From: a virus | Taxonomy: Duplodnaviria; Caudoviricetes | Reading direction: 5' to 3' (one strand) | Virus record (IMG/VR): IMGVR_UViG_2634166429_000001 | Location: 29,136 to 93,135 of that record | DNA: 64,000 nucleotides | Shown: positions 6,459 to 19,215 of the stretch, one piece after another | Numbering within the stretch: the stretch's first letter is position 1 | Layout: each line of letters begins with the position of its first letter | The notes under the pieces: generated by a model | Told to the model about the DNA's origin: nothing | The model's input: the letters and a program-made list of their open reading frames with translations, nothing else | Database searches by the model: none | Translations under genes and position numbers: made by a program

Positions 6459-6900
6459 GGCCTCCGGCAGGGGCGTGGGCATGATCAAGTTATTTGGTTC
6501 CCAAATGTGTAGGACAGAACCGCAGGCCCGTACGCCCGTGCGATGACCTGGATATCTGACGACAAGTCTGATCAAAAACGCGCAGCAGGGAATGGAGACA
6601 GATGGTGCGTCCAACGAGTAGGCTGAGCCTCGCGTCAGACATGCAGTCAGTTGCGAGGCTGGTTGGACGACGCAGCCCAAGAAAGTTGGAAGCCCCCGCT
6701 GCCACCTTGGTGGCGGTCCCGGTTTGCGAAGCCGAGACGCGAGGGCTGCCGACACCTCACCGATTCGAAGCGAATGAAGGTGCCGACATGGCAGAGCGTA
6801 CCCGCCCTCCGGGGCTATCAGACAGTGGAACCCCAGCCAGCACCGTGAAGATCACACCGGCGCGCGAGCAGGGTCCTGTCACCACTACCCCCATCGTCGC

Positions 6901-7335
6901 GTGAACGCCGCGGCGCCGCTGGCATCTATCTGCCAGTGCGGCGCAGAAGGCAGCTGTGAGACAGATGGATGGGTCCGCTTCTTCGGGCAAGACATCTGCC
7001 CTTCCTGCTGGCGTAAGCAGAAGGAGGCGGAGGCCGCCAACAGGGAGCGGCACTTCCGCGAGAAGCAGGAAGCCCAAAAGGCGTGGCGTGCCCAGAACGC
7101 CGAGGTGGCGGATTGCGCCAAGTGCAGCAGGAAGAACCTTCGCGTGCGTCTGCCGCGTGACGGTCGCCAGGTTGGCGACGGAACCCTCTACATCACGTAC
7201 TGGCACAAGTCCCCGGAGACAGGCACCGACTGCCGCTCCGAGGTGGACACAGAAAACGTCCGGATCGCCAATCGGGCCGAACGGTCCTGGCGCCGGAAGC
7301 AGACCTCACCCAGTAAGGGAGATCAGGTGACGTAG
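6901..7335 (+). CDS. Cys-rich hypothetical protein
   Basis: CQC, CPSC, CAKC motifs. Confidence 0.5.
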   Translation: MNAAAPLASICQCGAEGSCETDGWVRFFGQDICPSCWRKQKEAEAANRERHFREKQEAQKAWRAQNAEVADCAKCSRKNLRVRLPRDGRQVGDGTLYITYWHKSPETGTDCRSEVDTENVRIANRAERSWRRKQTSPSKGDQVT

Positions 7336-7345
7336 TGACTTCCTG

Positions 7346-7545
7346 AGCGGGAGGTCCTGGGCCCCTTGGCGGGGGCGCTTCCTCTACCGCTGGCCGCTGG
7401 TGTTGGCGCACCGTGCGCGGCCTCGTGCAACGGCTCGGTTTGGCGACCGAGCTAAGGCCCGAACTTCGATCCGGTTTGGCGACCGGCCCGAGATTCGAGC
7501 GACCTACAGGTTCTGGCGAACCCACCGAAGTCCCAACCGGGCCTT
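7346..7545 (+). ncRNA. Multi-hairpin leader with five YTGGCG loops upstream of rep1
   Basis: Stem-closed loops at 7366, 7403, 7440, 7476 (TTGGCG) and 7513 (CTGGCG); outer stem AAGGCCCG/CGGGCCTT. Confidence 0.65.
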
Positions 7546-7591
7546 CGTCGTCCCCCTTGTCAGCAAGGACGGATCCATAGTGCAGCACGGC

Positions 7592-9091
7592 ATGCCCTCT
7601 TGTCAGCTTGGCGACGCCCCGAAGGGCGATTCGCGAGGAATCTCCCCCCGCGCGGGCGACACCCCGTGCCCCCAGCCGTCACACAACACGCACGCCCCCA
7701 ACATCGAAATCGAACCCACGTTCGACTACAGTGCTGGTCAGGCGGGTCGTGGCGGACAGCTCCGGGTGCTCGCAGCCGCCCAATGGCTGCACGCCACGAC
7801 CGGCCGCATCGCCACCTGCCCCCACTCCTGGATGACCGCAGTCCACTGGGTCCACGGCAGCGGCCTCTACACGCCGTCCCGCACCCACGGCCCCAAGTGG
7901 GGACCCACCACCATCGCCATCGCGCAGGAACTCTCCGCGCTGAAGGAGTGCCGGCCCGGCATCGACTACCTCGCCCGCAAGCTGCGCATCTCCGAGCGGA
8001 CCGTCCAGTACCACCTGGGCATGCTCCGTGAGGCCGGACTCCTCGTCTACCGCAGCAAGGGCACCCGCATCCAGGGCATCGGCGGCCGCGCCTCCGTCTT
8101 CGAGCGGATCATCCCCACCGCCTTCGACGACGCCCTCGGCATCCGCACCGTCGGCGAGGGTGCAACGCGCCGCCCCGTCGGAGCCGCCCCCGAGCACCGG
8201 ACCCTCCTCGGGAAGCTCGCGAAAAAGGCCGCCCGGAAGACCCGCCGCCGTCCCTCCCGCACCCGGTCTCAGCGAGGACAGCGTTGCACCCCAATGCAGG
8301 GTGGTACCTCAACTGTTTCTTCTACCGCTCTGACTAGCTTTCCCTCTGAGGCAGAACTCGCAAGCGGGGAAGCCGAGTCACAGCCGAGGAAGTCCAACAA
8401 CCGCGGGCAGATCCTCAACAACCAGCCCCACATCCCCAACCAGCTCCCCAAGAAGCCGAAGAAGCTCAACAAGGTCGGCCGCCGCTACCAGCTCGCCCGC
8501 GAACTCCAGCAGATGGTCCCCTGGCTCAACCGCGCCGCCGTCCCCCGCCTCGCATGGATCGTCCGCCACGTCGCTGACGCCGGATGGACGGCCCTCGAGG
8601 TCCAGGCCGCCGCCGAGCAGCTGCCCGTCTCCGCAGACGACGCCCGACGCCCCTCCGGACTCCTCGCCTACCGACTCGCCTCCTGCCACCTGCTCTACAC
8701 CACCCCCGCCCGCCGCAAGACCCTCCTGGACGCCTGGCGCGAGTCCCGCGTAGCCGAGCAGGCCCGCCACACCGGCTACGACGAACTCACCAGCGGCCCC
8801 ACGAGCCTCGCCGCCCGCCGGGAAATCGATGCCGCGTTCAACGCCATCCGCAACCGGCTCGCTGCCGACAGCCCGCCCCTCGACGACGCCCCCCTGGAGC
8901 TCGAGGACCTGTCCCGCGAAGAAGTCATCACCATGCGCACCGAAGCCTCCCGCGACCCCGGCCTAATCCACTCCGCGATCGTCCTCCTCGGTGAACGGCA
9001 GGCCCGCCGGCTCTACACCAACCAGCTCGTCGACCAGACCCTCGCCCTCGAGGCCATCGCAGCCCGCAACCCCAACGCCCCCGCCTTCTGA
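7592..9091 (+). CDS. Replication initiator-like HTH protein (Rep1)
   Basis: CRPGIDYLARKLRISERTVQYHLGMLREAGLLVY winged HTH; followed by DciA-like and parAB genes; start uncertain. Confidence 0.65.
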   Translation: MPSCQLGDAPKGDSRGISPRAGDTPCPQPSHNTHAPNIEIEPTFDYSAGQAGRGGQLRVLAAAQWLHATTGRIATCPHSWMTAVHWVHGSGLYTPSRTHGPKWGPTTIAIAQELSALKECRPGIDYLARKLRISERTVQYHLGMLREAGLLVYRSKGTRIQGIGGRASVFERIIPTAFDDALGIRTVGEGATRRPVGAAPEHRTLLGKLAKKAARKTRRRPSRTRSQRGQRCTPMQGGTSTVSSTALTSFPSEAELASGEAESQPRKSNNRGQILNNQPHIPNQLPKKPKKLNKVGRRYQLARELQQMVPWLNRAAVPRLAWIVRHVADAGWTALEVQAAAEQLPVSADDARRPSGLLAYRLASCHLLYTTPARRKTLLDAWRESRVAEQARHTGYDELTSGPTSLAARREIDAAFNAIRNRLAADSPPLDDAPLELEDLSREEVITMRTEASRDPGLIHSAIVLLGERQARRLYTNQLVDQTLALEAIAARNPNAPAF

Positions 9092-9100
9092 GGAGACGCC

Positions 9101-9586
9101 ATGCCCACCCCAGACATGCCCAGCGACGTGAAAGCCCTCCGGACCCACCTGCGCATCGCCCGGCAGCACGCCCACACCACCGACGCAGAACGAGCCGAGA
9201 TGGAAGCCCGTCTCCACGAGTCCAAGGCGGAGACCGCCCGGGCCCACGCACGCGCCGCCCGCAGCCACGCCGAAGCCGCCCTCGCCTACGCCGCGCTTGC
9301 CGAGGTACGCCGCCTGTGCAACCTGACCATCGCCGAGTCAGTGCGCACCCCGGCCATCGCGCAGGCCCGCGACACCCTCACGGCCATCGACTCCGTCACC
9401 GAAGGCCAGCCGCTGCCCGACGACGCCGCCTGGCACTCCGTGTGGCTGCACGGCAACTGGCGCCACCTCACCAAGAACATGACCACCCCGGAACGCGAGC
9501 ACGCCGCCGACGCCGTCGCCCGCTACAGCGCCCATGTCGAGCCCGACGAGCCCGCCATCGCCGACCTGCGCTGGTGGAGGGACTGA
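9101..9586 (+). CDS. Hypothetical coiled-coil protein
   Basis: RBS GAGGAG; codon bias. Confidence 0.7.
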   Translation: MPTPDMPSDVKALRTHLRIARQHAHTTDAERAEMEARLHESKAETARAHARAARSHAEAALAYAALAEVRRLCNLTIAESVRTPAIAQARDTLTAIDSVTEGQPLPDDAAWHSVWLHGNWRHLTKNMTTPEREHAADAVARYSAHVEPDEPAIADLRWWRD

Positions 9587-9588
9587 CC

Positions 9589-10386
9589 ATGACCACACCC
9601 CAGTCCTCCGGGGCCGACCTCGCCCGCCAGGCCCTCGCCGCAGCCCGCGCGGCCGCCAAAACCCAGCCCGTCGCCGGCCCGAAGAAGACCCGCCGCACCA
9701 TGCGCGTACACCGCGGCGAAGGACGCGACCCCCAAGCCTTCGACGCCATCCTGAACACGCTCCGCGCCGAACAGGGCTGGGAAGGCGGCATCAACGGCGG
9801 CAACCTCCTCGACCAGTGGCCGGACATCTGCCCGCCCGAGCTGGCCACCACCGTCCGGCCCACCGCCTACGATCCCGAACGCGGACTCCTCACCCTTGAG
9901 CCGTCCACCCCCGCCTACGGCACCCAACTCCGCCTCTTCCAGAACAAGCTGATCCAGCACCTCAACCAGGCGCTGGGGAAGCCCGCGGTCCGTACGATCC
10001 GCGTTCTCCCCCCTGGCGGCCGCCGCGACGGCGCCCCCGACCCGGCGCCGCAGCCGACCGCCCCCAAGCCCGAGGCGCCGGTGAAGACCCGGGAGACCGC
10101 ACACGCCGGCTACCGGCACACACTTGCCCTCGCGCTGGAGAACCGGCTCACCCTTCCCCCGGAGACGGCTTACGAGGAGGAAGCCCGACGCCGGCAGGAG
10201 GCCGCCCTCCGCGCCAACCGGCAACCGGAAAGCGAGGACCGGGAGGCGTACTGGGCGCAGCAGGACGCCGCTGCCGCCGCAGGCCCGACCCCGGGCAGCA
10301 TGGCCGCCTCCGAAGCAGCCGCCCGCGCCTACGCCCGCAGCCAAGCCGCCGGCCGCACACCGCAGCGCGCGTTCGACGTCGCATGA
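9589..10386 (+). CDS. DciA (DUF721) helicase-loader-like protein
   Basis: ADLARQALAAAR, RDPQAFDAIL...QWPDIC...LLTL...AYGTQLRL...LIQHLNQALG...VRTIRV. Confidence 0.75.
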   Translation: MTTPQSSGADLARQALAAARAAAKTQPVAGPKKTRRTMRVHRGEGRDPQAFDAILNTLRAEQGWEGGINGGNLLDQWPDICPPELATTVRPTAYDPERGLLTLEPSTPAYGTQLRLFQNKLIQHLNQALGKPAVRTIRVLPPGGRRDGAPDPAPQPTAPKPEAPVKTRETAHAGYRHTLALALENRLTLPPETAYEEEARRRQEAALRANRQPESEDREAYWAQQDAAAAAGPTPGSMAASEAAARAYARSQAAGRTPQRAFDVA

Positions 10387-18817: not shown

Positions 18818-19215
18818 CCCCCGACGACTACGGACACCTCTACGCCGAAGCCCACGACGAACCCGCCTTCTCCAACAGCGATGAAGGCTACGGCTGGATG
18901 GACGCCAACTGCGCCACCTGCATCCACGACAAGCCGGCCCGCCAAGGCCGCGACCACGAAGGATGCCCCCTCATCCTCATCACCCTCATGAGCAAGCGCC
19001 CCATCCAATTCCTCGACGGACCGCGAAGCCCCGAAGGCCTCTACAACATCGCCGACCAATATCGGTGCATCGAGTACCGGCACGAGAACGACGGACCCAC
19101 CGACCCCCAACCCATCCCCGACCCGCCCGGACAACTCACCCTCCTGCCCCGAGAGGACTACCAGGGCCACCGCATGCTCACCCAGGCCCCGCAGGAAACG
19201 GCGGTACCCCGATGA
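18814..19215 (+). CDS. Hypothetical protein
   Basis: GTGA overlap; CATC motif. Confidence 0.65.
   Translation: MTPDDYGHLYAEAHDEPAFSNSDEGYGWMDANCATCIHDKPARQGRDHEGCPLILITLMSKRPIQFLDGPRSPEGLYNIADQYRCIEYRHENDGPTDPQPIPDPPGQLTLLPREDYQGHRMLTQAPQETAVPR

Follow-up and report, generated by a model that had tools for sequence, protein, structure and literature searches.

Layout of the locus

The stretch of DNA analysed here (the window, 64,000 nucleotides) is part of a 93,135-base IMG/VR virus record that is rated complete. Its positions 6800-9200 find matches in 127 plasmid records, 125 of them from Streptomyces and mostly of ~85-93 kb, among which are pSLE1 (S. leeuwenhoekii) and pSAM1 (S. ambofaciens). 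pSLE1 combines genes for terminase, capsid and tail with ParAB, SSB and DciA, and its authors relied for its annotation on homology and synteny with the plasmid-phage pZL12 (PMC4487206). Together, the Streptomyces plasmid matches, the mixed phage and plasmid gene set of pSLE1 and the synteny to pZL12 identify the element, by its gene content, as a Streptomyces phage-plasmid of the pZL12/pSLE1 type; a paper on a mycobacteriophage origin names pZL12 in a passing mention only (PMC7157519). Regions upstream of rep were taken from plasmid records, species genomes, pZL12 and IMG/VR contigs, and a set of 35 loci (numbered with an L), on phage-plasmids of this type and on large plasmids, was compared in detail; these loci hold 33 distinct cassettes and their counts overstate the independent cases, because a plasmid present in two collections sometimes enters as two loci and cassettes can be identical (L014 = L024, L030 = L039).

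Between an upstream ORF (6901-7335) and a plus-strand gene for a rep-like initiator (7580-9091) lies an array of hairpins. The earlier note had placed this array upstream of rep, which is borne out, with the start of the gene now moved to a probable GTG at 7580. In 33 of the 35 loci, the frame that begins at this GTG, inside an invariant CATAGTG, runs on into Rep without a break, several database records begin rep at the GTG, and the codon-position G+C of 7580-7765 (0.69/0.58/0.76) is compatible with coding. With rep probably starting at GTG 7580, the cassette would therefore end ~30 nt 5' of the start codon. A purine-rich, SD-like stretch (AAGGACGG, 7566-7573, plus strand) precedes the start, and purine-rich stretches such as GGAAGCAGG or AAGGAGGACGG occupy the same place in the 35 loci. 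The 62-codon N-terminal extension that this start gives to Rep (7580-7765; V.. ..CQL.. GDSR..SP..) is included in some database records and omitted from others; in L031, L032 and L049 the frame from the CATAGTG start ends after ~106-110 codons and may there be a separate small ORF. The protein has an HTH at about residues 111-181 and matches HTH_20 (E 1.2e-5, below the Pfam cut-off) and the PHROG 'replication initiation O-like' (E 3.9e-6); HTH families and this PHROG are its only matches, and an initiator of the RepZ/RepA type (ColIb-P9, R1) was not recognised.

On the minus strand, over the beginning of rep, lies a promoter-like element pointing leftwards (7577-7606), with a -35 hexamer CTGACA (7606-7601), an 18-nt spacer and a -10 hexamer CACTAT (7582-7577), the hexamers covering rep codons 8-9 and the start codon. 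Of the 35 loci, 32 have CTGACA-18-CACTAT exactly, CAAGAT and ATGACA occur once each as variants, and the element is absent from one locus. The rep codons TGT CAG CTT are invariant at synonymous positions, and the six codons between the hexamers vary freely; TGT and CTT are rare codons in Streptomyces. Because two conserved hexamers thus flank a spacer of variable sequence and fixed length, the pair looks like an antisense promoter, with a start expected near 7570. A promoter scan of 7200-7900, whose consensus is of the E. coli type, did not call it, and its -10 CACTAT does not begin with the T of TANNNT. A protein-binding site would be another explanation for the invariant TGT-CAG-CTT. On the plus strand, TTGTCA and CATAGT were discarded as promoter hexamers upon inspection of the alignment, in which neither has a conserved partner 16-18 nt away; neither a sense promoter nor an antisense terminator was found. 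A query of public sequencing runs listed no RNA run with this DNA.

All hairpins of the array are given on the plus strand. Hairpin 1 (7361-7376, GCCCC-TTGGCG-GGGGC) caps stem-loop 1 (7347-7390), whose basal helix pairs GCGG-GAGG (7347-7354) with CCTC..CCGC (7381-7390); the cap is absent from pZL12, L002 and L017, where the base is retained. Hairpin 2 (7398-7413, (T)GGTG-TTGGCG-CACC(G), with four Watson-Crick pairs and one T.G) forms the top of stem-loop 2 (7392-7422), on a base of GGCCGC/GCGGCC. Hairpin 3 is a stem-loop in its own right (7432-7453, GGCTCGGT-TTGGCG-ACCGAGCT, or in letters (G)GCTCGGT-TTGGCG-ACCGAGC(T)), with seven Watson-Crick pairs and one G.T. Hairpin 4 (7471-7486, CCGGT-TTGGCG-ACCGG) tops stem-loop 4 (7460-7497), in which a lower stem pairs CGAA (7460-7463) with TTCG (7494-7497) and which is wholly swapped for another hairpin in L006, L007 and L012. 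Hairpin 5 (7509-7522) can be written GGTT-CTGGCG-AACC and is better drawn GGTTC-TGGC-GAACC: in nearly all relatives its stem GGTTC/GAACC is conserved and its loop is free (N4-6, including GGGA, CCCC, CTCAC, GACCA and TTCCG), with a compensated stem, GCTTC/GAAGC, in L001 and L012. Five hairpins with one and the same loop had been claimed earlier; four do share TTGGCG, at 7361-7486, and the fifth, with its conserved stem and free loop, belongs to another class and could be a protein site or a structural RNA hairpin. The loop words begin at 7366, 7403, 7440, 7476 and 7513 and are thus spaced by 37, 37, 36 and 37 nt.

Two further helices enclose hairpins, both lying where they had first been noticed: a long-range helix (7454-7549) of AAGGCCCG (7454-7461) with CGGGCCTT (7538-7545), around hairpins 4 and 5, and a second one of ACTTCG (7463-7468) with CGAAGT (7526-7531). 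A leader terminator of the pIP501/pT181 kind would take the form of AAGGCCC/GGGCYTT followed by a T run (GGGCTTTTT), and this arrangement is seen in most relatives; in the window the T run is weak and a simple terminator scan (7200-7900) called none. Helix and T run together suggest a candidate plus-strand attenuator or terminator.

As a word, YTGGCG is common in the window, with 153 matches where shuffles give 131.8 +/- 11.6. The window contains 363 hairpins that have at least four pairs and a loop of 6 nt; those among them with a TTGGCG loop, four in number, all fall within the 126 nt of 7361-7486. The folding energy of a 265-nt stretch is unexceptional against shuffles (z = -0.32 on the plus and -0.41 on the minus strand), so that support for the structure comes from relatives and not from energy. 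The earlier note had also proposed a search of Rfam; cmscan of 6500-8500, on both strands and with E up to 10, returned no matching family, its six weak matches (to miRNA, snoRNA and sRNA models) being far below gathering scores. Two hairpins with CGCCAA loops elsewhere in the window, at 18940 and 63825, both apparently lie in coding DNA and were taken as chance.

At the left border of the module (7300-7335, plus strand), the last 11 codons and the TAG of the upstream ORF contain an SD-like AAGGGAG (or GAGAGGAAG in relatives), a start codon, one codon and TAG. The start codon is GTG here and GTG, ATG or TTG across the loci, the codon after it ACG, ACC, ACT, GCA or TCT, and TG.C.TAG is invariant across 25 sequences. 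The upstream ORFs of 16 loci encode mostly unrelated proteins with a common tail (..SPSKGDQVT*, ..PPIEGDRVT*, ..PPERKQMT*), and in pZL12 the left-border DNA lies outside any annotated gene. The border thus looks like a conserved start-one codon-stop just 5' of the cassette; it is the sole small frame, and no leader peptide was found between cassette and rep. The upstream ORF (144 aa) contains several CxxC pairs, which give it a zinc-ribbon-like look, and has no family match in Pfam, NCBIfam or PHROGs.

Stems and loops in related replicons

The intergenic stretch that holds the cassette finds matches in 53 plasmid records, and a covariance model of the cassette is positive in 6 genomes out of a sample of 151 from the genus, with the centre genome included. 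The cassette occurs on phage-plasmids and on large plasmids of up to 892 kb, in each case before a rep-like gene. L030 (an 892-kb linear plasmid), L031 (linear, 144 kb) and L032 (pSGZL, 237 kb) carry it with a rep-like gene on large non-phage plasmids, and it may therefore be seen as part of a replication module common to phage-plasmids and large plasmids, several of them linear. In all 35 loci the cassette consists of three or four hairpins with differing stems and one common loop word. Ten loci form a second class (class II), in which the hairpins are spaced by ~47/47/28 nt instead of 37/37/37.

Motif words directly flanked by at least four Watson-Crick pairs make up 88 of 112 inside the cassettes and 5 of 537 outside them in the same loci, and come in 29 distinct combinations of arm and loop. 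A covariance model built on 24 class I cassettes with a hand-drawn structure matched 35/35 cassettes, on the plus strand every time. In the model alignment (35 cassettes, 33 distinct), 96.7% of cells are paired against 86.9% in shuffles, both-sided changes are found in 22 of 43 pairs and 0 of 500 shuffles reached any of five measures, all on an alignment fitted to the model structure and hence biased towards it. The raw hairpin lists show the same compensations, and sliding the partners by 1-3 columns lowers pairing to 36-49%. Helices 1-3 are paired at 96-100% in the 33 distinct sequences, and both sides have changed in 7/9 pairs of helix 6 (stem-loop 3), in 4/4 pairs of helix 7 (lower stem 4, CGAA/TTCG vs CGAC/GTCG) and in 3/5 pairs of helix 8 (stem-loop 4). 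The stem of hairpin 2 varies as GGTG/CACC, GATG/CATC and GGTCG/CGACC, that of hairpin 3 as CTCGGT/ACCGAG, CTCGAAG/CTTCGAG, CTCGGAT/ATCCGAG and CGGAG/CTCCG. RNAalifold on a MAFFT alignment misdrew hairpins 1 and 3 because of the register of that alignment, and the model-based alignment was used instead. The fate of the loops and stems in homologues had been named beforehand as the point on which the proposal could fail: across the 35 cassettes of the covariance model, the stems covary, and the loops of a cassette share one word, which differs between plasmids.

Within a cassette the loops agree in their word; between cassettes the word differs. TTGGCG fills the loops of 19 of the 35 loci, with an occasional CTGGCG or TTGGCA, and TTGACG those of all or nearly all hairpins in 6. 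Class II loops read either CGCCAA, the exact complement (pZL12, pSAM1, L002), or TGCCAG/TGCCAC/TGCCAA, sometimes with TTGCCG, and most of them are TTGGCG, CTGGCA or GTGGCA on the opposite strand. Among 31 IMG/VR contigs with the anchor motif, one was too short and all 30 assessable ones contained the array, 17 with TTGGCG, 9 with CGCCAA, 3 with TTGCCG/TGCCA and 1 with TTGACG. With stems that differ, the loops must have changed one by one, and parallel changes of this kind point to selection by a common reader.

The loops also share a way of opening. Most cassettes have, on one strand, loops that begin with UUGG, UUGA or CUGG, the TTGCCG loops excepted, as in the YUNR U-turn rule described in a passage of PMC4485353. 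A structured target with YUNR U-turn loops, as found in antisense-controlled rep leaders, is therefore present here, in covarying stems and in loop openings alike.

Several other identities were considered for such an array. A Type III toxin-antitoxin system (ToxI-like) was rejected on the grounds that the 37-nt units share the loop word only, that class II is spaced by ~47/47/28 nt and that the next gene is a rep-like HTH gene. ANTAR targets were rejected on the rule that their hexaloops carry A1 and G4, and a T-box leader, suggested by UGGN, was dropped because TTGACG loops lack UGG.

Strand choice and the search for a reader

Which strand folds can be read from the wobble pairs. In class I cassettes G.T pairs outnumber A.C pairs by 53 to 15, and the plus-strand minimum-energy folds are the richer in G.U pairs in 18 of 19; on the pairs that class II shares with the class I model the counts are 11 G.T and 16 A.C, and the minus strand of class II folds better in 9/9 cases, by 9.9 kcal/mol on average and by 19.4 in pZL12. 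Many of these wobble pairs stand at the same columns and so represent few independent events. The long-range helix leans the same way: its left arm AAGGCCC is invariant, its right arm reads GGGCCTT, GGGCTTT or GGGTTTT, and the C-to-T changes keep pairing on the plus strand only (as G.U) while lengthening the T run. Because of the G.T/A.C bias, the minus-strand energies of class II and the plus-strand-only changes of the helix, the molecule is, on comparative grounds, read as a single strand, and the strand showing YUGGCR is the one that keeps the wobble pairs.

A reader that follows the loop type was sought among the neighbouring proteins. The rep-like proteins fall into two clades only ~25% identical, each of which is found with all loop types. 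L014, L015 and L016 have near-identical rep-proximal DNA and Rep N-termini with three loop types; the cassettes of L014 and L024 are identical and adjoin Reps of different clades; L019 and pZL12 have almost identical Rep N-termini with TTGGCG and CGCCAA loops, respectively. The peptides at the N-terminus of Rep show no grouping by loop type, and the upstream ORF and the Rep N-terminal peptide were both rejected as loop readers for want of co-variation with it. Within these comparisons, what always changes together with the loops is only their complement in the other strand.

These findings bear on a single structured RNA, whether the leader of rep or the upstream operon's 3' end, whose loops are bound by a protein (a repressor, an antiterminator or a titrated factor, in the manner of boxB/N or CsrB/RsmZ) and which has no antisense partner. 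Selection by a single protein reader would account for one word recurring in several loops on differing stems, the structure covaries, the wobble pairs of class I favour one strand, and the T run after the long-range helix suggests control of termination. A sequence-specific reader should nevertheless be intolerant of the complementary loop words that stand in the same flanking context in 10 of the 35 loci, unless the other strand were transcribed there, and no neighbouring protein follows the loop type, be it by Rep clade, Rep N-terminus or upstream ORF. We consider this reading unlikely. CsrB/RsmZ-type RNAs and boxB/N do resemble the cassette in showing many hairpins, varied stems and one loop word; they have a known protein reader, whereas no candidate here varies along with loop type, and the cassette tolerates the complementary word.

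Alternatively, the hairpins might act as DNA and belong to the replication origin, where, on its opening, they would take the shape of cruciforms or single-strand hairpins and be recognised by Rep, DciA/DnaB, primase or another protein; single-strand initiation signals and hairpin-binding initiators would come closest as models. The flip of the loop would then merely swap the strand that displays it in a cruciform, the cassette always adjoins a rep-like gene on phage-plasmids and on large plasmids alike, and YTG, kept in all loop variants, recalls the CTG at which E. coli primase starts. A precedent for an initiator that binds such DNA is RepA of the unrelated Streptomyces plasmid pWTY27, which binds a long inverted repeat according to a passage of PMC3583192. 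Against this stand the independence of loop type from Rep clade, two features that fit RNA better (G.T outnumbering A.C on one strand, and a helix that is kept on the plus strand only and has a T run), and the composition of the region, which is 67-73% G+C without an A+T-rich stretch. Neither a plasmid primase nor a rolling-circle initiator is annotated on pSLE1, and the hexamer pair conserved at synonymous sites of rep would be left unexplained. A DNA role thus seems doubtful to us, to about the same degree as a protein-bound RNA. An origin of the iteron type was rejected, in that the arms vary, only the 6-nt centre is kept and the loop type is independent of Rep clade.

We also considered that the plus-strand RNA might regulate in trans, its loops pairing with a short word that many plasmid genes have at their translation starts. 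CCGCCA, which holds a 5-mer complementary to UGGCG, is found in 16 of 124 pSLE1 start regions against ~7.4 expected; the exact words are not enriched at the same 124 starts (CGCCAA 3 vs 3.7 expected, TTGGCG 1 vs 3.7), on which the pairing was rejected, and in plasmids whose loops read TTGACG or TTGCCG, many genes would have to have changed to match. Such a regulator is thus very improbable. The CCGCCA excess at pSLE1 (L028/L029) starts sits among enriched ATGACC and TGACCA and, because of this co-enrichment, probably reflects N-terminal Thr-Ala codons.

Proposed antisense control of rep

The reading that we prefer, with a confidence that we would put at even, is that the cassette (7347-7549) is a structured rep leader through which a countertranscript controls rep by several identical kissing loops, and that it is also an incompatibility determinant. 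In this proposal the rep message would arrive from the upstream operon (sense transcription being assumed) and fold into four stem-loops, each capped by 5'-UUGGCG-3' of the YUNR type. The minus-strand promoter over the rep start codon would fire leftwards from ~7570, and the resulting RNA would carry the complementary CGCCAA loops; its complementarity would begin, at the 5' end, with the ribosome-binding region of rep and go on through the entire cassette. Pairing would begin by loop-loop kissing at up to four equivalent sites and would block rep translation and/or favour the AAGGCCC...GGGCYUUU helix just 5' of the start codon. The loop word, above all its fourth letter, would set which plasmids inhibit one another and thereby serve as the incompatibility determinant. 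No separate reader gene would be needed, because target and inhibitor are the two strands of one stretch of DNA. Transcription of both strands, kissing and the effect on rep are steps that we infer from the comparison of sequences.

Antisense control of this kind would explain how the cassette moves between replicons without a reader, how the loops flip and how all loops switch jointly. It leaves the identity of the loops within one plasmid unexplained, known antisense systems such as ColE1 and pIP501 having differing loops and not one repeated word, and it does not account for TTGCCG loops, which fit YUNR on neither strand. Of the functions suggested in the earlier note, a multivalent kissing-loop leader for copy control nevertheless fits best, given the covariation, a plasmid-specific word independent of Rep, the complement loops, the minus-strand hexamers and unlike co-resident plasmids; its protein-sponge and ssDNA-hairpin options are weakened.

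Co-resident plasmids offer a view of incompatibility from natural strains. Five strains carry two cassette plasmids, and the loop types differ in 5/5: TTGGCG (L021) with TTGACG in hairpins 2-4 (L034) in NBC_00873; a cassette 100% identical to L021 with TTGACG (L035) in NBC_00842; TTGGCG (L015) with TTGACG (L036) in NBC_01240; a cassette 100% identical to L015 with class II TGCCA (L037) in NBC_01238; and TTGACG (L038) with TTGGCG (L039) in NBC_01369. This is the predicted direction, and it is weak evidence that is not significant alone, because two plasmids drawn at random would differ with a probability of ~0.59 per pair (from the type frequencies of the sample) and because the pairs are partly related. 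TTGGCG and TTGACG are one transition apart, so one cross-combination still forms a G.U pair and discrimination may be leaky.

Several known systems share parts of this design. In the ColIb-P9 Inc RNA/repZ leader and in IncB/IncK RNAI/repA, a rep leader stem-loop with 5'-UUGGCG-3' faces a complementary antisense RNA, as proposed here. For the loop word, the precedent is the title of Asano 1998; for the role of loop bases in the incompatibility of I-complex plasmids, as would be the case here, it is PMC10724649, where single loop bases change the compatibility of IncK1 and IncK2. UUGGCG as the loop motif of ColIb-P9, given earlier as established, can be traced to a cited title and to the passage on the YUNR U-turn in PMC4485353, and stands to that extent. 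The differences are nonetheless considerable: (i), I-complex plasmids have one stem-loop, a leader peptide, a pseudoknot and enterobacterial RepZ/RepA replicons, whereas the present cassette has three or four equivalent loops, an unrelated HTH initiator followed by DciA, and Streptomyces hosts; (ii), in some of the present plasmids the motif is on the other strand.

In pIP501 (RNAIII/RNAII) and in pT181-type attenuation, an antisense RNA with multiple stem-loops acts on the rep leader, as proposed here; these systems have a U-turn in the recognition loop and a terminator 5' of rep, and the title of Heidrich and Brantl 2007 states that two loop pairs act at once. Their loops differ from each other, whereas those of the cassette are identical, and termination is only suggested here, by the long-range helix and T run. 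Several sense and antisense loops also kiss at once in ColE1 RNA I/RNA II, as would be the case in the cassette; RNA II is, however, a primer and not a rep leader, its three loops differ and there is no Rep protein. In c4 RNA (P1/P7) and CI RNA (P4), short, repeated complementary words switch together between heteroimmune relatives of a phage-plasmid or satellite; these RNAs control lytic or anti-repressor genes and not rep, and their target words are not on an antisense partner from the same stretch.

More broadly, the cassette could be a portable and self-contained module for copy control and incompatibility in Streptomyces phage-plasmids and large plasmids, in which one kissing-loop word, repeated three to four times on a sense/antisense pair, allows a one-letter change in all loops, or a flip of strand, to create a compatibility group without touching the initiator; we hold this wider proposal more tentatively, at somewhat below even. 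Titles and abstract openings of the literature contained no description of the cassette or of antisense-RNA copy control in Streptomyces theta-type plasmids or phage-plasmids, the original description of pZL12 being outside this scope, and a full-text search for UUGGCG yielded nothing relevant by title or abstract opening among the matches listed. If the proposal is true, this would be, within the literature searched, the first antisense-RNA copy control found for these plasmids, and of unusual design, with several identical U-turn loops in place of distinct ones. The rep start of this plasmid family would be better annotated, compatibility might be predicted from the loop word as a sequence-readable barcode for the replicon family, and a small cassette would become available with which to adjust the copy number of Streptomyces vectors. 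The loop switches and flips found in nature also form a ready data set on the origin of incompatibility groups.

Beyond rep, on its 3' side, lies a DciA/DUF721-like gene (9316-10386; Pfam DciA, E 1.3e-15). Neither DnaB nor a primase is annotated on pSLE1, and the plasmid may therefore come with a helicase operator of its own for use with the host's DnaB. Beside the DciA-like gene, relatives have a SLOG/DUF2493 gene, small ParB-like genes or a DNA methyltransferase.
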